DNA of 43,637 bases, from NCBI GenBank assembly GCA_016867415.1, contig VGJO01000002.1, forward strand, positions 72,835 to 116,471. Reading direction: 5' to 3'. This document shows, in pieces, positions 6,997 through 14,132 of this stretch. The DNA comes from Candidatus Harrisonbacteria bacterium. Its GTDB lineage: Bacteria; Patescibacteriota; Minisyncoccia; UBA6257; UBA11618. Position 1 is the stretch's first letter. Each line of letters opens with the position of its first letter. The notes under the pieces are model-generated. The model was not told where the DNA came from, did not search any database, and saw only the letters and a list, made by a program, of their open reading frames with translations. The position numbers and the translations under genes are program-made.

Positions 6997-7241
6997 TCAT
7001 CTTCCCACCCCGCCTTTATAGAAAAGATCTTCATTGATCTCCTGCCCAATAAGCCCCTTCTCTAATTCTGAAAAATCCACACTATCTACCTCCGCTCCAA
7101 ATTTATCCAAATCTGCCCGGCTCCGCCACCCATAAATATCTACAAAAAGTAAAAGGTAAAAAGAATAAGAAGCGACAAAATCACCAGTCCAAAAATCACC
7201 CATCGCTCCCTCGCAATTTTTTGCTCATTCTCCAAATCCAT
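6997..7241 (-). pseudogene. Small single-TM protein split by a 1-nt frameshift in a T5 run
   Basis: ATG 7241 gives MDLENEQKIARERWVIFGLVILSLLILFTFYF. One extra T at ~7144-7148 joins it to the 6997 ORF (81 aa). TATAAT lies 11 nt upstream. Confidence 0.45.
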
Positions 7242-7332
7242 GTCTAGAGTCAATTATAGCAAAATATGAATAAAAAAAGCCTTGTTAGTATTTATAATTT
7301 GAATTCACCATATAAAAAGTCGGAAATTATTC

Positions 7333-7406
7333 TGGAGCGGGATACGAGAATCGAACTCGCGCCTCAACCTTGGGAAGGTCGCGTACTGCCACTGTACTAA
7401 TCCCGC
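7333..7406 (-). tRNA. tRNA-Gly(CCC)
   Basis: GCGGGAT..anticodon loop TTCCCAA..GTTCGATT..CCCGCTCCA; 74 nt cloverleaf with CCA. Confidence 0.95.
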
Positions 7407-7457
7407 AAAAAAAGATTACTGATTGTAAAATAAATATAAAACAATCTCAATTATAAG

Positions 7458-7582
7458 ACGCGGGCTTTTTCGAGGAAATTTCGATTTTCTTTCTGAGTAT
7501 CGAGCGGAGCATAATAGGAAAGTCTGTGAGCGCGAAATGGAAGAAAAAAATCGAAATTAATGGAAGAAAAAAATCGAAATTA
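7458..7582 (+). repeat. ERIC/RPE-like element, copy 2 (right arm has a 23-bp tandem duplication)
   Basis: GGAGCATAATAGGAAAGTCTGTGAG core; ATGGAAGAAAAAAATCGAAATTA twice, at 7537-7582. Confidence 0.8.
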
Positions 7583-7601
7583 AAAGAAAAAGACAAAAGC
7601 T

Positions 7602-8171
7602 TTAATGGACTTCCCCTTGCGTCCAACTAAACCCCGGCGTCAAAAACAAAACTTTAGTTGCTAATTTTTTCTCTTTCAACCATTTCTCTGGATCTATCCC
7701 TTGAGTCACTAAATCTTTTTGCACCTCCTCCTGCATCACAAGTGGCAAAACCACTTGCTCTCGAAAATCTGACGGCGATAAGTGAAACATTGCTTCCACT
7801 GCTCCTAAGAGTCTAGGATCTTTTTGCACTTTGTCAATCTCTATCTCTATTTTTTCTTCATTTGACGCATTCTTTAGTGTGGCAAACTGATCTCGCACAA
7901 TAATCTCCTGAATAATCTTCTCCCATGTCATCTTGGGCAGATCTGCCTGCAACTTCTCAAAATTTTCCTTAGTCAAATCTGGAGTATTTTTATACGTAGC
8001 GTGAAGAGTGTTAAGATAACTATTTCCAAGGGCAAATGCCTGATCATATTCTCTCTTTGAAATAATTTCAGAACCTATGATCGCAAGTGGTAAATACCCG
8101 CTCCGTAAGACATAGAGAAATCCAAATCCAATCCCCAAAACCATCAAAAAAAGAGAGAAAAAAATACGCAT
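7602..8171 (-). CDS. Membrane-anchored protein, SurA N-terminal-like
   Basis: N-terminal TM, then LAIIGSEIISKREY and a helical body like CPR SurA-N proteins. Confidence 0.55.
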   Translation of the reverse strand: MRIFFSLFLMVLGIGFGFLYVLRSGYLPLAIIGSEIISKREYDQAFALGNSYLNTLHATYKNTPDLTKENFEKLQADLPKMTWEKIIQEIIVRDQFATLKNASNEEKIEIEIDKVQKDPRLLGAVEAMFHLSPSDFREQVVLPLVMQEEVQKDLVTQGIDPEKWLKEKKLATKVLFLTPGFSWTQGEVH

Positions 8172-8172
8172 A

Positions 8173-8436
8173 TTATTTTGAGCTAATGATTAAAGCACTC
8201 ACTCCTTTAGGTACTAGATTAAATCGTGATCGAATCTCTTTCTCTAAATTATAGTCATTTTTGTAATAATCAAGATCTGCCGATAAAATCTCCCCTTCTT
8301 CCTGAAGCTTATCTGCTTTCGCTCGTAAATTCGACACATCTGAATGCAAAGTTCCCGTAAGAAAATAAAGCCGAAAAAAACCAAACGATAATCCAAAAAT
8401 AACCATAAACAAGAAAAGGAGTAGAATCCATTTCAT
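8173..8436 (-). CDS. Septum formation initiator family (FtsB/DivIC-like)
   Basis: TM plus coiled coil plus LEKEIRSRFNLVPKG motif; 87 aa. Confidence 0.75.
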   Translation of the reverse strand: MKWILLLFLFMVIFGLSFGFFRLYFLTGTLHSDVSNLRAKADKLQEEGEILSADLDYYKNDYNLEKEIRSRFNLVPKGVSALIISSK

Positions 8437-8512
8437 ACCTCAAGTATAATTCCCACTCTAAAAAAACAAAATGGGCAAGGAAAAAATATCAAGTCACGTA
8501 AAATAAAAAATT

Positions 8513-8635
8513 AAGCGAAGTGATTTTTAACTTATTTTCGTTCTTCTTTTTGAGTGCACCCCGGAGCATACTAGGAAAGTCTGTGAGGAGCGAACGGAGA
8601 AAAAAGAATGAAAAGAAACCAAAAATAGAACAAGC
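8513..8635 (+). repeat. ERIC/RPE-like element, copy 3
   Basis: AAGCGAAGTG..GGAGCATACTAGGAAAGTCTGTGAGGAGCGAACGG.. Confidence 0.85.
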
Positions 8636-8640
8636 AGAAG

Positions 8641-8849
8641 CCAAATAAATCTTTGGCTCGAACCTCCTTCTCCAAAACAAATCAGTGCGCGCCAGCGCGC
8701 CGAATTTTGAGAATTCGCTTGCGAATTCAGGCGAAACAGCGTGGGCGTGTCTAGGGCACGCCCACACCATCTTTGACATTTCCGACAAAAGTCGGGTCTT
8801 GGAGTATCTTTACGACTTCGCTCGAACTTACTTTATCAAAAATTCCTGA
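8641..8849 (+). pseudogene. 3' fragment of a second, diverged large serine recombinase
   Basis: Reads AK*IFGSNLLLQNKSVRASAP..AWACLGHAH..RVLEYLYDFARTYFIKNS*; aligns with AKEIFGSNLVLANREARLRAP..HWAALRAAH..LILE of the recombinase at 10436. Confidence 0.8.
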
Positions 8850-9075
8850 CTTTCGGAAGCCCGCCGCTCGCCGCCGCAAAGCGGCGGCCTGCCTCGGAGA
8901 AAATTTTACTTCACATTTTTAATTTGCGCGCGTTACAAAAATTTCAATTAAAGGAGAAACAAAAACTTTCTGCTAGGCCCCTTTTGATGATATAAAAAAA
9001 TTCATAAGAAATAATCTTATGGTGATATGCATGTCATTATTCCAAAATATATAGTATATTAAGAATAATAGCTTT

Positions 9076-9573
9076 ATGATCACTCCCCAATTCTTATTAA
9101 TAGGAATTTCTTCTCTAGCAATTTTATTAACTTTAAGCATATTTGTTTTTGTTAAAAAACCTTCTTCATGGCTTTGTTTTATCATTGGGCCGATTATTGT
9201 TTTTTTGGGAATTATGACAACTTTGCTTTTTAATTCTGACATCAGTTTTTTTATGTTATTTGGTGCTATTTTATTATTTATTGTTATTTTGGTAGAAGGG
9301 TTTTGTTTGATGAAAATAATTAATGGAAAGGGCTATATTAAAGCTTTCTTAATTGACATAGCTTATACTCTTTTGACTATCTTTTTTGCTGCTCTAGGAC
9401 TTTATCTACATTTTATAATAAGTCAGCCTAAACCTAAAAGCGTTGACTGGGATCTTCCTTATTTGTTTATTTTCTGGCCCTATATAATTATTTTAACCAT
9501 TGTAATGAATGTTATTTTTCTAATTGTTGGTTTAGCGGTATCTACAAAGAATAACTCTGATGCAAAATATTAA
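9076..9573 (+). CDS. Hypothetical multi-TM membrane protein (cargo 1)
   Basis: About 5 hydrophobic segments; markedly AT-rich DNA. Confidence 0.7.
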   Translation: MITPQFLLIGISSLAILLTLSIFVFVKKPSSWLCFIIGPIIVFLGIMTTLLFNSDISFFMLFGAILLFIVILVEGFCLMKIINGKGYIKAFLIDIAYTLLTIFFAALGLYLHFIISQPKPKSVDWDLPYLFIFWPYIIILTIVMNVIFLIVGLAVSTKNNSDAKY

Positions 9574-9949
9574 AACAAAACCATTTATATTGATTTTAAG
9601 TGGTGTTATATTAGGATTATTTACTTCTTTAAGTGGAATTGGCAATTTTATTCTTTCAGCTATTACGGGTAAGTACACTTACTTATGGACCATACAAAGA
9701 TGGCTCGATATAACAAATGTTATAAAGTTTATATACAGCGACTCTTTGCTAATACCGATATCATCAATAATAGGATTCATTTTATGTATAGCTCTTATTT
9801 TCTTGTTGGTAGAAATTTCGAAACAGTTTAATAAAAAAATATTTATCGCCAGTACTTTGTTAGGGTTTGTAGGTATAATCCTTGGTTTAGGATTAGGCGG
9901 CATTCTTGTTATGATTGGAGGTATTCATGGACTAGTATACAAATCATAA
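9560..9949 (+). CDS. Hypothetical multi-TM membrane protein (cargo 2)
   Basis: Hydrophobic segments, Gly-rich TM hairpin (GIILGLGLGGILVMIGG); overlaps cargo 1. Confidence 0.7.
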   Translation: MQNIKTKPFILILSGVILGLFTSLSGIGNFILSAITGKYTYLWTIQRWLDITNVIKFIYSDSLLIPISSIIGFILCIALIFLLVEISKQFNKKIFIASTLLGFVGIILGLGLGGILVMIGGIHGLVYKS

Positions 9950-10010
9950 ATATTTTAACTATTTTTTCTTAAAATATTCCTTTCCTTTTTAGAAGAATTT
10001 TTTGGTGAGG

Positions 10011-10322
10011 CGCGCGCAATCAAAATGAGAGGTAAATTTTTCTGCGAGGCGGGCCGTCGCTTTGTGGCGGCGGGCGGCGGGCTTCCGAAAGTCAGGAATT
10101 TTTGATAAAGTAAGTTCGAGCGAAGTCGTAAAGATACTCCAAGATTAAACTTTCCGATTTTTGACCGACCATTTGATGGGCCGCCCGCAGGGCGGCCCAA
10201 TGGTTTTCCCCCGACAAATCCTCTCCGCTCGGCGCGCGCAGGCGCGCCTCGCGGTTGACCAAGACGAGGTTCGGAATCCAATGCAATTTTAAATATTTGC
10301 TTGCCCGACAAAAAGAATTTTT
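10011..10322 (-). repeat. Inverted, internally deleted mini-copy of the recombinase gene with attP-like junction and 3' flank
   Basis: 10137-10273 matches 11838-11974 (137 bp, 2 mismatches); 10074-10144 is identical to 8797-8867; three 15-17 nt blocks match LSR 10455-10469, 10822-10838 and 11777-11791. Confidence 0.9.
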
Positions 10323-10413
10323 ACTATAATGACCTTGTAACCAATCCGCAGAGTTGTCTTTTTTGATGGCCGTCTCTGTCAGTTCAAGGCAACTTGGATT
10401 GGTTACAGCAAGG
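10301..10413 (+). promoter_or_regulatory. Putative LSR promoter (TATAAT 10325-10330) followed by a long leader hairpin
   Basis: TGTAACCAATCC (10336-10347) pairs perfectly with GGATTGGTTACA (10396-10407); inner stems AGTTGTCTT/AAGGCAACT and TGATGG/CTGTCA. Confidence 0.55.
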
Positions 10414-10435
10414 ACGGCCTTTAAAGTTTATAACT

Positions 10436-12154
10436 ATGCAAAATTTATCCACGCAAAAATTCTTTTTGTATGCCCGCAAGTCCACCGATGTTGAAGATAA
10501 ACAGGTTTTGAGTATTGAGGCACAGATCACAGAATTGCTTGCCTTCGCCAAGCAAGAAAATCTTTTCGTCGTTGAGGAATTAGTTGAAAAACAGTCAGCC
10601 AAAATTCCGGGTAGACCGATTTTTAACGAAATGATGAAGCGCGTGGAGAATGGTGAAGCGAACGGAATTTTGGCCTGGCATCCCGACAGATTGGCGCGCA
10701 ATTCTGTTGACGATGGCAAGATAATTTACTTTTTGGACTGCGGGCATTTGGCAATGTTGAAATTTCCCACCTTTTGGTTTGAGAATACCAGCCAAGGAAA
10801 ATTTATGCTCAACATTGCCTTCGGGCAAAGCAAATATTATGTGGATTCTCTTTCCGAAAATACGAAACGAGGCTTGAGACAGAAGGTCAGGCGCGGCGAA
10901 TATCCTTCACTCGCTCCGATTGGTTATCTCAATGATCCACGAACAAAAACTGTTGTAGTGGACAAAAAGACCGCGCTCATCGTTCGCCGCGCCTTTGAAC
11001 TCTACGCGGAAGGCAATCAAACGCTCCAAGACATCGGAGAATATTTTGAGCAAAACCGCCTCGTTTCCAAAAGCGGAAAGAGAATCCACATCTCCAGAGC
11101 GACTTTTATCCTCTCTAACCCGTTTTACACCGGCCTATTCCGCTATGCTGACGAAATATACGAAGGCAAGCACGAGCCAATAGTGGCAAAGAAACTTTGG
11201 GACAAAGTGCAGGAAGTGATGAAGCAGAGAGGGCGTCCAAGACATAAAACGCAGATTGAACCAGAAGCATATTGCGGATTGTTGTCGTGTGGCTATTGCG
11301 ATATGCAAGTTACTGGCGAATACAGGGTGAAAACACAAAAGAATGGCACGCAACATTTCTATACTTACTACCACTGCACTAAGAAATCTAAAAGCATCAA
11401 ATGTCCCGAACCCCGTATTCGCCAAGAAGTCTTGGACGAGCAAATATCATCACTTCTGCAAAAAGTTTCTTTGCCACCGGATTGGGCGGAATACTTAAAT
11501 GAAAAACTTGAAAAAGACAAAAATGAATCCGCCCAATCCGTTTCTGCTTTTGTAGCAAAGAATGAAAAACGACTTGTTGAAATATCCCTTAAACTTCAGC
11601 GACTTCTTGATGGCTATTTGGAGCAGGACATAGACCGTGAAGTTTATCGTCAAGAAAAGGCAAAGTTATTGAGTGAGAAAAAGTCGCTGGAGGAGCAAAA
11701 CACCACTTTTCTACAAAAGCAGAAACATTGGCTCGAACCGATGCAAGAATGGATAAAAGTCTCAGGAAATCTGGAGAAAATTGCATTGGATAGCAACCTT
11801 TTTGGCAAAAAGGTTGCCGCCAAAGAAATCTTTGGCTCGAACCTTGTCTTGGCCAACCGCGAGGCGCGCCTGCGCGCGCCGAGCGGAGAGGATTTGTCGG
11901 GGGAAAACCATTGGGCCGCCCTGCGGGCGGCCCATCAAATGGTCGGTCAAAAATCGGAAAGTTTAATCTTGGAGCCGAAGGCGAGAGTCGAACTCGCGAC
12001 CTTTGCTTTACGAAAGCACTGCTCTACCACTGAGCTACTCCGGCATCGCCTCGCTGAAGCTTACAAGCGAAAGCGGGCCTTGCCTCGCCATAATATCGAG
12101 GCAGAAAAAATCTCTTATAAAATAACAAAAATCCCCCTTTCCGGCAAATTATAA
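10436..12154 (+). CDS. Large serine recombinase (resolvase, recombinase and Zn-ribbon domains); last 59 codons are antisense tRNA and flank sequence
   Basis: YARKST catalytic motif, WHPDRLARN, GLRQKVRRGEYPSLAPIGY, LSNPFYTG, GLLSCGYC..YYHC, coiled coil. ATG 10436 preferred over TTG 10394. Confidence 0.93.
   Translation: MQNLSTQKFFLYARKSTDVEDKQVLSIEAQITELLAFAKQENLFVVEELVEKQSAKIPGRPIFNEMMKRVENGEANGILAWHPDRLARNSVDDGKIIYFLDCGHLAMLKFPTFWFENTSQGKFMLNIAFGQSKYYVDSLSENTKRGLRQKVRRGEYPSLAPIGYLNDPRTKTVVVDKKTALIVRRAFELYAEGNQTLQDIGEYFEQNRLVSKSGKRIHISRATFILSNPFYTGLFRYADEIYEGKHEPIVAKKLWDKVQEVMKQRGRPRHKTQIEPEAYCGLLSCGYCDMQVTGEYRVKTQKNGTQHFYTYYHCTKKSKSIKCPEPRIRQEVLDEQISSLLQKVSLPPDWAEYLNEKLEKDKNESAQSVSAFVAKNEKRLVEISLKLQRLLDGYLEQDIDREVYRQEKAKLLSEKKSLEEQNTTFLQKQKHWLEPMQEWIKVSGNLEKIALDSNLFGKKVAAKEIFGSNLVLANREARLRAPSGEDLSGENHWAALRAAHQMVGQKSESLILEPKARVELATFALRKHCSTTELLRHRLAEAYKRKRALPRHNIEAEKISYKITKIPLSGKL
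11970..12044 (-). tRNA. tRNA-Thr(CGT)
   Basis: GCCGGAGTAGCTCAGTGGTAGAGC..TTCGTAA..GTTCGACT..TTCGGCTCCA; 75 nt. Confidence 0.95.
12047..12077. repeat. Short REP-like hairpin directly upstream of tRNA-Thr
   Basis: CGCCTCGCTGAAGCTTACAAGCGAAAGCGGG, an imperfect hairpin with G.A mismatches. Confidence 0.4.
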
Positions 12155-12196
12155 GTATATAAAAACAGCCCAGCTAAAAGGCTAGAAAGAATACTA

Positions 12197-12322
12197 ATTT
12201 CCGAGGATTTTTTTCCAAAGACAAGACATTTCAGAAAAATATGCGAGAGGCATACATAAGGGAAGTATGTCGACCAAATATTTTTCTGAAATAACACAGT
12301 ATTTGGGAAAAAAGACCAAAAA
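12197..12322 (+). repeat. ERIC/RPE-like element, copy 4 (subtype B)
   Basis: TTTTCCAAAGACAAGAC..GAGGCATACATAAGGGAAGTATGTCGAC..TATTTGGGAAAAAAGAC; inner arms TCAGAAAAATAT/ATATTTTTCTGA. Confidence 0.75.
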
Positions 12323-12323
12323 T

Positions 12324-14132
12324 TTATTTCTTCAATAACTCTTTAAATACAGATGGTGGTATCTCCACGCTATTTCCCGCTCCCTCCGCTCTCTCCTTCA
12401 TCTTCGCTTTTCCCTTCTGCTGCTTCTTCCAAAGCTTCATTTTTCTCGTCCGATCGCCTCCATACAAGTACCCCGTCACATCCTTACGCATCGCCGCCAC
12501 GTTTTCCCGAGCAATAATTTTCCCAAAGGCATAGGCCTGCACCGCCTGCACAAACTGCTGCTTCGGAAGCAAATCCTTAAGCCGCTCCACGGTCTGCCGC
12601 CCCTCTCGCTCCACCGCCTCTTTGGGCAACACTCGGGTCAGCCCCGGCACCACGTGCCCCGCCACCATGATCTCAAGCTTAGTGAGCTCGCTCTTCTCAA
12701 ATCCTACCACCTTGTACGTGAGCGACGCATAGCCATTGGTAATGGACTTCAATCTATCATCCAAATCGGAGATGAGGTCCGCAAGCGGCAATCGAGATGA
12801 AAGCAACAGTCTTCCTCCCAAATTTTTTGTATCAAATTCCGCAAACCGAAAAAATTGATTGAGTGACAAGACTCCCCCTACATACGACGCTGGAGTCACA
12901 ATCTCTACCTCGGCAATTGGCTCCCGCGCCTCCAAATAATCCGCTGGAAAATCCTTCGGGCTCTTGATCTGCACCTCCTCACCTTGGAGAGTCTTCACTC
13001 GATATTCCACTGATGGGAAGCTATGAGTAGTCTCCAAACCAAATTCATTTTGCAGCCGCTCCACGATAATCTCAAAGTGCAGCCGACCAAGAAAACCGCA
13101 CTTAAATCCTCGTCCCAAGAGCTCCGAGGTGTCCGGTTCAAAGACCACCGACGAGTCATTCAATCGAAGCTTCAAAAGGGCCGACTTCAAGTCATCATAT
13201 TCCTCCGCCTCCTGAGGATAAAAGGAGACGAAGACCACCGGCTGAGGCTCCGCATAGCCCGAAAGCGCATATTTTCCGTAGTCAACTTCGGTCATATCCT
13301 TAGTCACAACCGTATCTCCGATCTTAATCATTGATGGGTCTTTAATGCCGGTTACGATATAACCAATCTCCCCATTGCTAAGATCTGGCGTCGATTGTAA
13401 AGCGGGATAAAAAGCTCCCACCTCCTTCACTTTATGTTCAAAACCAGTCGCTAAGAAAAGCGCCTCTTGCCCCATCGAAAAACTTCCATCAAACACTCGA
13501 ATAAAAGCAATCACTCCTTTGTGTTCATCATATTTAGAATCAAAGACTAAAGCTCGCCCTCGAGAAATATCATCCACTCTCGGTGCCGGCACTTTCTTTA
13601 CTATTTCTGCAAGCAACTCTTCCACGCCCACACCAGTCTTGCCCGACACTCGTAAAATATTATTCAGATCACAATCTAAGAGTTCTGCGAGCTGCAGCGC
13701 CGCCTCGTCCGCGAGATCTTTATTAAGATCCACCTTCGACACCGCCCCAATGACGGTCAAACCCACGCGTCTTGCCGTCTCATAGTTTGCTAAAGTCTGC
13801 GCTTGGATCCCTTGCGTAGCGTCCACTAGAAGCACCGCCCCCTCCACCGCCGCCAAGGCCCGCGACACCTCATAGGAAAAGTCCGAATGTCCCGGCGTAT
13901 CAATAAGGTTCATCTCATACTCCTGATCCTCATAGGTATAGCTCATCCGCACCGGCGCCATCTTAATCGTGATTCCTCGCTCCCGCTCTGATTCCAAGCT
14001 ATCCAAAATCTGCGCCTTCATGAGCCGCTTCTCAATCGTCCCAGTCGTCTCAAGTAGCCGATCCGCCAAGGTCGACTTCCCATGATCCACGTGGGCAATA
14101 ATCACAAAATTCCGTATATTCTCCCGCTTCAT
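12324..14132 (-). CDS. lepA: Elongation factor 4
   Basis: IAHVDHGKSTLADR, ERERGITIK, DTPGHSDFSYEVSR, GFLGRLH, YGGDRTRKMKL. Confidence 0.97.
   Translation of the reverse strand: MKRENIRNFVIIAHVDHGKSTLADRLLETTGTIEKRLMKAQILDSLESERERGITIKMAPVRMSYTYEDQEYEMNLIDTPGHSDFSYEVSRALAAVEGAVLLVDATQGIQAQTLANYETARRVGLTVIGAVSKVDLNKDLADEAALQLAELLDCDLNNILRVSGKTGVGVEELLAEIVKKVPAPRVDDISRGRALVFDSKYDEHKGVIAFIRVFDGSFSMGQEALFLATGFEHKVKEVGAFYPALQSTPDLSNGEIGYIVTGIKDPSMIKIGDTVVTKDMTEVDYGKYALSGYAEPQPVVFVSFYPQEAEEYDDLKSALLKLRLNDSSVVFEPDTSELLGRGFKCGFLGRLHFEIIVERLQNEFGLETTHSFPSVEYRVKTLQGEEVQIKSPKDFPADYLEAREPIAEVEIVTPASYVGGVLSLNQFFRFAEFDTKNLGGRLLLSSRLPLADLISDLDDRLKSITNGYASLTYKVVGFEKSELTKLEIMVAGHVVPGLTRVLPKEAVEREGRQTVERLKDLLPKQQFVQAVQAYAFGKIIARENVAAMRKDVTGYLYGGDRTRKMKLWKKQQKGKAKMKERAEGAGNSVEIPPSVFKELLKK

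Follow-up and report, generated by a model that had tools for sequence, protein, structure and literature searches.

The stretch of DNA analyzed here, 43,637 nt of contig VGJO01000002.1 of a Candidatus Harrisonbacteria bacterium (referred to below as the window and numbered from its first letter), carries a large serine recombinase (LSR) gene and, upstream of it at 10137-10322, a patchwork copy of that gene condensed to 186 bp. On its sequence, this mini-copy makes up the inner half of a site of attP type (site 2) that lies inverted within an LSR integrative element of ~3.2 kb; the element occupies window positions 8797-11974 in the 3' end of a tRNA-Thr(CGU) gene of a Patescibacteria chromosome. 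The explanation that best accounts for the observations overall, to which we assign a probability of roughly 0.65, is that this site is a spare attP and a spare gene end, that the repeats to which it belongs make the element invertible, and that the short blocks of the mini-copy are the condensed relic of an inverted gene copy, now lying in the LSR promoter.

The mini-copy and the three sites of the element

The initial annotation had described four gene fragments, in gene order, on the minus strand of 10137-10322, and repeat search and alignment find all four where it placed them. The largest is a 137-nt repeat in which 10137-10273 is the reverse complement of 11838-11974 with 2 mismatches (E 1.7e-70). 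The three short ones follow it toward the gene as block C (10276-10290, minus strand; gene positions +1341 to +1355), which is 11777-11791 inverted at 15/15 positions, block B (10292-10307, minus strand; +386 to +402 minus one A), which is 10822-10838 inverted with one A lost (TCGGGCAAAGCAAATATT vs TCGGGC-AAGCAAATATT), and block A (10308-10322, minus strand; +19 to +33), which is 10455-10469 inverted, again at 15/15. The T and TC letters at the junctions also read as annotated. Taken singly, each 15-mer block has an E value of 0.018 in a search against the whole 43.6-kb window, and because three collinear, abutting blocks adjoin a 137-nt match, chance or low complexity as the cause of the mini-copy is ruled out.

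It is a second inverted repeat beside the 137-nt arm that reveals the nature of the mini-copy as part of an attP-type site. This repeat (10022-10144 vs 8797-8919, 93.5% identity over 123 nt) abuts the 137-nt arm with an 8-nt overlap, CTCCAAGA, and the similarity of its two arms, T'' and T', continues more weakly for ~45 nt past the 123 nt. Site 2, read on the minus strand from 10273 down to ~9980, accordingly has the order D'-core-T' and is attP-type. D' (10137-10273, minus strand) repeats, in inverted form, the 45 LSR codons that lead up to the crossover, includes the core at 10137-10144 and would form the P arm of the internal attP, and the T' arm (9980-10136, minus strand) carries a spare native end of the LSR, YLYDFARTYFIKNS* (10136 to 10092), followed by a hairpin. 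Site 3 (11838-12044, plus strand) is attR-type and has the order D-core-antisense tRNA, where D (11838-11974, plus strand), the partner of D', holds the last 45 conserved LSR codons and core copy 3 (11967-11974, plus strand) is the right element end, with the crossover probably in GAG 11972-11974 at tRNA positions ~72-74. Site 1 (8797-8965, plus strand) is attL-type and has the order left flank-core-T''; core copy 1, TCTTGGAG (8797-8804, plus strand), is the left element end, with the crossover probably in GAG 8802-8804, and the T'' arm (8805-8965, plus strand), the inverted partner of T' and putative P' half of attP, encodes YLYDFARTYFIKNS* (8805-8849) ahead of a GC-rich hairpin. The integration target, tRNA-Thr(CGU) (11970-12044, minus strand), is called by ARAGORN and scores 66.7 bits against Rfam tRNA; its acceptor 3' strand and T arm would make up the B' half-site, and the 137-nt repeat ends within this gene, sharing its last 5 nt. 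On this layout D-core-T is the attP form and D-core-tRNA the integrated form. The element does not have the terminal inverted repeats and direct target-site duplication of an insertion sequence or transposon: its ends are direct core copies with different arms, and its inverted repeats are internal.

The two copies of the gene end also carry transcriptional signals. In D' a terminator-like hairpin with a T run lies at 10177-10199 (plus strand), upstream of the LSR promoter, and on its minus strand D gives tRNA-Thr its CCA end, its trailer and a strong terminator-like hairpin with a T run (11934-11912). Because the same hairpin is present in D and D', the tRNA would keep its 3' flank, and the LSR its insulation from upstream transcription, in either orientation of the segment. 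The cargo (8966-9979, plus strand) lies with an inverted T arm on either side; it has 27% G+C and two hydrophobic open reading frames (ORFs), 9076-9573 and 9560-9949, neither of which has a Pfam match.

The recombinase, its two tails and the family-wide layout

The LSR ORF as it stands (10436-12154, plus strand) begins at ATG 10436, comprises 513 conserved residues (to 11974), has no stop at the end of the repeat and continues through the antisense tRNA-Thr for 59 read-through codons to 12154. It contains a Resolvase domain (Pfam PF00239, E 1.2e-19, residues 10-155, with YARKST at residues 12-17) that aligns to 3g13 and 3guv, together with PF07508 Recombinase (5.9e-15) and PF13408 Zn_ribbon_recom (3.5e-08), as in large serine recombinases, and it is homologous to the A118 integrase 4kis and the SPbeta integrase 9dxh. 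It does not have the make-up of a small serine invertase, that is, a ~190-residue recombinase with a C-terminal helix-turn-helix, 26-bp sites and an enhancer. Judged by its domains the enzyme is a bona fide LSR, and judged by its sites the element is a site-specific integrative element. Its homologues number at least 8000 and are largely from Patescibacteria.

On the mini-copy strand the frame of D' continues into T' and ends ...SLILE-YLYDFARTYFIKNS*, and the C-termini of homologues, after the conserved ...LE, fall into two classes, either (Y/H/R)LYDxARTYFIKNS* or antisense-tRNA peptides like ..GIEP....CSTN. The two tail classes and the D'/T' frame together place the crossover inside the LSR ORF, ~14 codons before the native stop. 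In the integrated ORF the conserved 14-residue C-terminal tail (LYDxARTYF) is replaced by antisense-tRNA read-through, and site 2 retains an intact spare that consists of the last 45 codons (D'), the core, the native tail with its stop and the hairpin. Across 44 distinct T arms the codons of the tail vary (Arg as CGA/AGA; Thr as ACC/ACT/ACA/ACG; Phe as TTT/TTC) and one position is only Tyr/Phe/His, a codon usage that points to selection at the protein level. The AlphaFold model of the native-tail homologue P0043 (mean predicted local distance difference test score, pLDDT, 77) has long helices at 344-391 and 397-448 (coiled coil), and after the coiled coil a beta-hairpin at FGSNL, a disordered stretch, a helix at 491-500 and a terminal helix at 507-525 (pLDDT 80-87). 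The crossover falls within this terminal helix, so integration would replace part of a conserved structural element, and from the model we infer that the tail swap disables or alters the recombinase.

The window was compared with 160 related loci, 80 fetched from genomes and 80 from metagenomes, giving 161 LSRs in all. The LSR 3' end enters a minus-strand tRNA in 109 of these 161, with 18 isotypes represented. An inverted copy of the LSR 3' end accompanies ~96 of the 160 loci (45-330 nt upstream of the gene, mostly 115-170 nt, 97-100% identical to its partner), spans several Patescibacteria classes and comes with the same blocks. The initial annotation had suggested looking for such mini-copies beside homologous LSRs and had allowed for a one-off accident or a misassembly; the recurrence of the inverted copy and its blocks in homologous elements speaks against the former, and the recurrence of the layout in ~96 independent public assemblies against the latter. 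Where the flank is long enough, in 29 loci, the first inverted pair adjoins a second one of 150-430 nt, with which it has 3-15 nt in common and which encloses 1.0-4.6 kb of cargo. This cargo is hypervariable, its 131 ORFs forming 122 clusters, and has no conserved accessory or replication gene among the 29. Sites 1, 2 and 3 of all 29 loci, the window included, form a classical attL/attP/attR triad in which the tRNAs are still callable, and D'-core-T' is an intact attP-type junction in each, which bears out the annotation's idea of a copy retained as a second attP.

Further features of the sites agree across loci. The shared core can be as short as 3 nt (GAG, GTG or GCG), the complement of tRNA positions ~72-74, and to the left of site 1 stand what look like hairpin terminators, native tRNA trailers or the next tRNA, which would represent the displaced native trailer. 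Conserved motifs of the T arm are TTTACRAC and GCTCGAAC; the tRNA arm has GGAATCGAACC, the TCGAAC of which lies 4 nt nearer the core than in T', an offset that matches the geometry expected of P-type vs B-type half-sites. Members of a single LSR lineage, which share the D type and 87-94% nucleotide identity, are found at Ile, Arg, Gly, Glu, Ala, Leu and Lys tRNAs, from which it follows that the target is a generic tRNA 3' end, and the lineage seems to recognize the common T arm plus acceptor end rather than one gene. The members of this lineage are L022, L027, L035, L038, L044, L112, L115, L117 and L119; the D arm is nearly identical in L035, L044, L112, L117 and L119.

The window differs from the other 28 of the 29 loci in what lies to the left of site 1. 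We had taken this flank for plain host DNA, as in a simple attR model, and revised that view: host trailer is found there in the 28 others, and an LSR remnant in the window only. The remnant, D'' (8640-8796, plus strand), is the decayed 3' end of a different, older LSR (..AK*IFGSNLLLQNKSVRASAPNFENSLANSGETAWACLGHAHTIFDISDKSRV-), covers its last ~55 codons with an in-frame TAA, is nearly identical to the C-terminus of homologue P0082 and is joined via the core to T''. Its position beside site 1 implies that the element inserted at a tRNA site already occupied by an older element, and such serial insertion at one tRNA suggests that the tRNA half-site suffices as a target.

Both pairs of inverted repeats evolve in concert. 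D and D' are 98-100% identical within a locus and 82-90% between close relatives; D/D' flank the LSR gene and T''/T' flank the cargo, and each pair is homogenized within its locus. The gene bodies of L023 and L118 are 95.5% identical and both D copies have been replaced (51% identity), and those of L083 and L085 are 95% identical with D arms at 82%, D and D' having changed together. Both comparisons point to modular exchange of the gene end at a conserved ..KEIFGSNL boundary. The repeat pairs would make the LSR gene and the cargo invertible. The homologues P0030 and P0020 agree in their LSR and D region but not in their tails, one being native and the other derived from tRNA-Thr. The contigs that encode them, L161 and L162, stem from two different assemblies and match at 98.5-99.7% identity, yet relative to a 139-residue cargo gene common to both, the LSR segment lies in opposite orientations. 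The order is cargo-T'-D'-LSR-D-tRNA-Thr in L162 and LSR-D-core-T'-cargo in L161. In three loci (L006, L010 and L069) the tRNA lies directly upstream, beside D', and on the 2.5-kb contig L110 the LSR segment lies between two perfect 476-nt inverted copies.

Several copies of the element per genome are often found, as with L012 and L049 on one contig. L053, L065, L104 and L142 each have two diverged LSR copies (66-75% over the aligned stretches), tail-to-tail or in tandem round tRNA clusters. In L108 (1448-1546) the LSR matches that of L085 at 100% identity where the two align but apparently lacks ~100 nt immediately before the D arm. Possibly the full gene has here undergone a deletion at the very place where the mini-copy is condensed. 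Many contigs (L001, L005, L009, L014, L024, L036, L038 and others) end inside the LSR-flanking repeats or within a few hundred bases of them.

Self-complementarity of the gene and the short blocks

The LSR gene itself is rich in inverted repeats. Its nested exact inverted pairs of 10 nt or more number 15, compared with 1.3 after codon shuffling, and a 1540-nt frame holds 7-10 such pairs over the LSR against 0-3 elsewhere in the window. Counted over the 29 loci, such repeats (10-19 nt long) reach 4.6 per kb in the LSR body compared with 1.2 in the cargo and 0.8-0.9 in the host, an excess of about 5-fold, and as many as 53 of 142 distinct genes have a pair at the same position. In an alignment of 68 genes the 14 helices of the window are 74% paired, against 39-46% with the partner slid, and double-sided changes number 643 against 201-271 slid and 305 shuffled, a value reached in 0 of 500 shuffles. 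Wobble pairs are not favored (G-T 4.8% and A-C 5.7%, equal to the proportions in shifted controls) and the helices end abruptly, resuming after a mismatch in 59 of ~1950 ends. RNA-level structure as the source of the ORF repeats is ruled out on these two grounds, and the lack of wobble preference means that the constraint or process acts on Watson-Crick complementarity of the DNA.

These nested exact inverted repeats close four domains of the gene, namely I (Ia, 10472-10483/10735-10745; +36 to +310, and Ib, 10750-10760/10809-10819; +314 to +383), II (10839-10856/11074-11091; +403 to +655), III (11101-11111/11751-11761; +665 to +1325) and the palindrome IV (11793-11804/11806-11817; +1357 to +1381). 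From the ATG the order is A, Ia, Ib, B, II, III, C, IV and the D arm (+1399 onward). The three blocks and the D arm are thus what links the stem-closed domains, and the mini-copy amounts to the gene minus those domains. Family-wide, the start of a stem arm follows the 3' end of a block within 1 nt in 28% of cases (random 1%) and within 3 nt in 44% (random 4%), whereas block 5' starts lie near stems in 3% (random 4%). Full tiling of the deleted intervals by exact stem-closed domains, at 9% against 0.1-0.9% at random, was an over-strict test that we replaced by this boundary-distance test. The confinement of the signal to 3' ends fits a polymerase that stalls in the sense direction at the base of a stem and re-anneals a few to ~15 nt beyond it, as in snap-back or template-switch synthesis, or else hairpin-mediated deletion; it fits a designed, continuous-helix pairing platform less well. 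The junctions between blocks lie at microhomologies (CTTTTTG, AAATA). The annotation had offered, as the origin of the mini-copy, a fold-back inverted gene copy condensed by deletions or template switching, and the nature of the deleted parts and of the junctions supports this view.

Domain IV is a perfect 12-bp palindrome (11793-11817) that encodes S-N-L-F-G-K-K-V-A through mutually reverse-complementary codons. It lies in the segment that is missing between block C and D', corresponds to helix 14, shows compensatory changes and is found at the same position in relatives, e.g. L161 (1481-1538).

The blocks follow their own gene in each locus. In the spacers between D' and the LSR start of the 96 loci, stretches of 12 nt or more that match the gene of the same locus exactly number 165 in inverted and, as the control, 7 in direct orientation; the matches lie at gene positions that agree with those of the window, ~+0-35, +370-400, +640-660 (in some lineages) and +1305-1355. 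Per locus there are 1.71 matches to the own gene and 0.60 to the genes of other loci. Block C, for instance, reads AAAATTGCATTGGAT in the window, AAAATCGCACGGGA in L016, AAATTGCTTCTGAT in L022 and TAAAATCGTGTGCGAG in L054, with gene and mini-copy the same in each. Block extents vary among lineages, and L001 and L082 share the 1-nt deletion that the window has in block B. Where block and gene differ, the gene nearly always has GC and the block AT, a bias that marks the gene as the master copy and the block as the one that drifts.

The best promoter match between 8600 and 12300, TTGCCC-18 nt-TATAAT at 10301-10330 (plus strand; 10/12), lies over the blocks: the predicted -35 TTGCCC (10301-10306, plus strand) is within block B and block A forms the spacer; relatives have a conserved -10 box after block A', TATAAT or TATACT, in many cases preceded by TG. 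This predicted promoter supports the alternative that the annotation gave to a second attP, namely that the copy was kept as a promoter. The predicted transcription start (near 10337) would have the blocks upstream of it. For the antisense or guide-like role that the annotation called speculative there is no evidence here: the blocks lie ahead of the predicted start, and their mismatches are nearly all GC-to-AT rather than wobble-compatible. The promoter scan found no promoter-like site that would drive their plus strand, and a terminator-like hairpin precedes them. RNA-level pairing of D' with D was rejected, as transitions giving G-U on one strand or the other show no asymmetry (62 vs 55), and so was an in-frame mini-LSR protein through A-B-C-D', as the frames differ.

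Between the predicted promoter and the gene lies a leader with pseudoknot topology (10336-10421, plus strand), with P1 at 10336-10347/10396-10407, P2 at 10352-10356/10390-10394 and P3 at ~10368-10375/10412-10419. Over 22 sequences the paired fraction is 98% for P1, where 7 of 10 pairs show changes on both sides, and 96% for P3, where 6 of 12 do so; P3 also keeps invariant U-G pairs on the plus strand, and 0 of 500 shuffles reached the observed values of leader pairing. The invariant U-G pairs indicate that the leader, unlike the ORF repeats, is an RNA structure. It comes in three sequence classes of the same topology, is absent from short-spacer relatives, e.g. L117 and L010, and matches no Rfam family, only two tRNAs exceeding gathering scores in 7200-12400. 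The annotation had seen the mini-copy as one arm of a giant palindrome centered on a hairpin at ~10372, a description that does not hold because this hairpin is stem P1 of the separate, conserved leader and no copy of the gene; the hairpin 10336-10407 was rejected as a further gene-copy block for the same reason.

The neighboring genes of the element are chromosomal, with LepA on the tRNA-Thr side and genes with weak, sub-threshold matches to DivIC-like and SurA-N-like domains on the other. The latter two are bracketed by two ~80-nt hairpin-forming direct repeats with the motif GAGCATA(A/C)TAGGAAAGTCTGTGAG, at 7470-7560 (by tRNA-Gly) and 8530-8610 (just left of D''), which have weak sub-threshold Rfam matches only. 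Between tRNA-Thr and lepA there is a 28-nt imperfect inverted repeat (12228-12292, 79% complementary, 9-nt loop).

Proposed mechanism, alternatives and known systems

Based on these data we put forward the following mechanism for the element. Integration would disable or alter the recombinase by swapping its C-terminal tail. Inversion across D/D' would then rejoin the full gene to T' and restore the native enzyme, either by homologous recombination over the 137 bp or by action of the LSR on site 2 and site 3, the latter still holding the tRNA half-site that is seemingly all a target needs. In either orientation D and D' would give the tRNA its CCA end, trailer and terminator and insulate the LSR promoter. 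As to the blocks, we propose that polymerase skipping or hairpin-mediated deletion removed each stem-closed domain of an inverted gene copy and left short blocks, and that template switching with the gene as donor keeps the blocks matched to the gene. The blocks would hence be by-products of making or correcting the spare copy that were later recruited as -35 and spacer. The functions given here to the blocks and to the spare site are those we infer from their arrangement.

Several observations weigh against this mechanism. The benefit of a spare attP over a single attP is conjectural, and the spare may serve the free form instead. Both orientations are seen between assemblies only, not within one population, and the tRNA-proximal orientation (state A) is found in 109 loci, the other (state B) in 3 loci and a few native-tail contigs, so that flipping would be infrequent or counter-selected, or the other state short-lived. 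No directionality factor is apparent, none of the 122 clusters of the 131 cargo ORFs being widely shared, which leaves excision unexplained. The symmetry centre of the attP half-sites (TT, 11969-11970) is 2-3 nt off the minimal core GAG, which makes any placement of the crossover dinucleotide provisional. Saccharibacteria-type relatives keep D' without blocks, and the blocks are therefore dispensable for the core of the mechanism; a purely mutational origin of the blocks must be recurrent or accompanied by conversion, as each locus matches its own gene. The promoter, finally, is a consensus match only.

A possible alternative, though one we consider clearly less probable, and which overlaps the proposed mechanism rather than opposing it, is that the internal site belongs to the free form. 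The excised circle would carry two inverted D-core-T (attP) copies that separate an LSR half from a cargo half; integration via either copy would leave the other as site 2, a chromosomal passenger, and the pair would serve flip-flop, copy control or a choice of orientation before integration. A circle of this kind necessarily results when sites 1 and 3 are joined, whichever of the 29 loci is taken, L110 has its LSR segment between perfect inverted copies, native-tail LSRs are mostly on short contigs and both arrangements relative to the cargo occur. Against this, no circular contig or circle junction was recovered among the loci, the cargo is without a replication gene, and random use of two identical attP sites predicts equal states, not 109 vs 3; LSRs such as the phiC31 and Bxb1 integrases are not known to recombine attP with attP. 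Rather unlikely, in our view, is a role of the blocks and internal repeats as pairing elements of a single-stranded stage, e.g. the minus strand after natural transformation, for which F-plasmid Frpo, phage M13 and plasmid single-strand origins are models. Here D':D and T'':T' would fold to duplex arms and the blocks would pair with the linkers of the hairpin-folded LSR gene, rebuilding a double-stranded -35 and spacer for transcription of the LSR or for priming complementary-strand synthesis. It is in keeping with this that the blocks are exactly the linkers and are depleted in stem arms (14% vs 29% random) and coincide with the promoter -35 and spacer, that the internal repeats are LSR-specific (4.6 per kb vs 0.8-1.2 in cargo and host) and conserved with compensatory changes, and that pairing is strictly Watson-Crick, as befits DNA rather than RNA. 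The abutment of block 3' ends alone on stems fits polymerase stalling better, however, and the mismatches, nearly all GC-to-AT in the mini-copy, look like AT-biased decay; the Saccharibacteria-type relatives do without blocks, the -10 box has no partner block and the cargo is unstructured. In a variant, the mini-copy plus strand would yield a mosaic antisense RNA against accessible linkers of the LSR mRNA, and this faces the upstream terminator-like hairpin, the lack of a driving promoter in the scan and the lack of a G-U signal.

That the minus-strand ORF 10092-10286 (TTG start, 64 residues) encodes a small protein that modulates the recombinase, e.g. a built-in directionality factor, appears highly improbable. 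The ORF consists of the last 45 LSR residues and the native tail, its frame is open through D' and T', and the C-terminal region is two predicted helices; but blocks A, B and C are in other frames than D', there is no ATG, the promoter scan lists no minus-strand promoter upstream of the ORF, and D' equals D at all codon positions, which fits homogenization at the DNA level. We give almost no credence to a functionless, one-off fold-back duplication trimmed by random deletions, or to a chimeric misassembly. Within the window alone the mini-copy does look like deletion debris, and T''/T' have diverged to 93.5%, but the comparative data refute this reading: ~96 of 160 loci from many independent assemblies and several Patescibacteria classes have the copy, block positions are the same with 165 inverted vs 7 direct matches, and two relatives share even the 1-nt deletion in block B. 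A wider idea, that the design of these elements lets them function in single-stranded form and reprogram the integrase they encode, we regard as speculative and unlikely. After uptake, e.g. by natural transformation, the two inverted D-core-T copies may fold to a double-stranded attP and the LSR gene may collapse into four hairpin domains, the blocks pairing with the leftover linkers to rebuild a double-stranded promoter, so that the integrase could be expressed from the incoming strand; the tail swap may be a switch of activity or directionality that needs no separate factor and that the spare end resets by inversion.

Parts of the proposed arrangement have counterparts in known systems. The large serine integrases of phages and integrative and conjugative elements (phiC31, Bxb1, A118, SPbeta SprA) have the same domain set, short att sites with P and B half-sites and hybrid attL/attR. 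In contrast to these, the enzymes described here target the generic 3' ends of many tRNAs and have attP inside their own ORF, an intact inverted attP stays in the integrated element, no directionality factor is evident, and the cargo is 1-4.6 kb of unrelated genes, neither phage nor integrative and conjugative element. Integrases of the SSV1 type (fusellovirus, Sulfolobus) have attP within the integrase gene and a tRNA target, and integration alters the gene. The present LSRs share with them the tRNA target and the location of attP inside the integrase ORF (~14 codons before the native stop), but the SSV1-type enzymes are tyrosine recombinases of archaeal viruses whose gene is split into two large parts, whereas here, in a serine recombinase, only the last ~14 codons are exchanged and an inverted spare end is kept. 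The yeast 2-micron plasmid (Flp/FRT) and amphimeric genomes likewise have two long homogenized inverted repeats with a recombinase target, between which the halves can flip; Flp, however, is a tyrosine recombinase, and the 2-micron plasmid replicates autonomously and uses inversion for copy amplification, whereas the present element is integrated, has no replication gene and has one repeat copy split by integration. Hin, Gin, Cin and the shufflons resemble it in that the recombinase gene lies in (Hin) or beside the invertible segment and C-terminal ends are exchanged (Gin, Cin, shufflon). Their recombinases, however, are either small serine invertases that work with Fis and an enhancer or the tyrosine enzyme Rci, their sites measure 26 bp or 19 bp, and the protein they vary is a tail fibre or a pilin. 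The present system relies on an LSR (at least 513 conserved residues) and has repeats of 115-350 bp, and what changes is the end of the recombinase itself.

The blocks recall quasi-palindrome template-switch mutagenesis and hairpin-mediated deletion, reportedly described by Ripley and by Glickman and Ripley, in their short exact inverted patches, their junctions at microhomologies and stem bases and their arm-to-arm correction. Such events are known as sporadic, unlike the present blocks, which are conserved in position, family-wide and over a promoter. The tycheposons of Prochlorococcus are also small cargo-carrying elements at tRNA genes of streamlined genomes; 910 of 937 use tyrosine recombinases, many have replication genes and a minority encode an LSR, and a search of the text of that paper met with neither an inverted attP inside the element nor a swap of gene ends nor a patchwork copy (10.1101/2020.12.28.424599). 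Full-text literature searches returned no description of this element family or layout. Unusual here are attP in the integrase ORF, a generic tRNA target, a retained inverted attP, an LSR gene and cargo bracketed by homogenized repeats, and a hairpin-rich gene with its relic.

If the architecture works as proposed, these would be very abundant minimal mobile elements that place hypervariable cargo of 1-4.6 kb beside the tRNA genes of Patescibacteria, a group in which routes of gene exchange are poorly known. The ends of contigs in or beside the repeats suggest that the elements break short-read assemblies of Patescibacteria genomes. A coding gene under strong DNA-level self-complementarity, together with a condensed copy that records its folded domains, raises the prospect of single-stranded stages or of templated mutagenesis. 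An integrase that targets generic tRNA 3' ends through the T arm and acceptor end, in 18 isotypes, could be attractive as an enzyme for multi-site or portable landing pads, and one that rewrites its own C-terminus, with a spare end restorable by recombination, may constitute a switch of directionality or activity that requires no separate factor.

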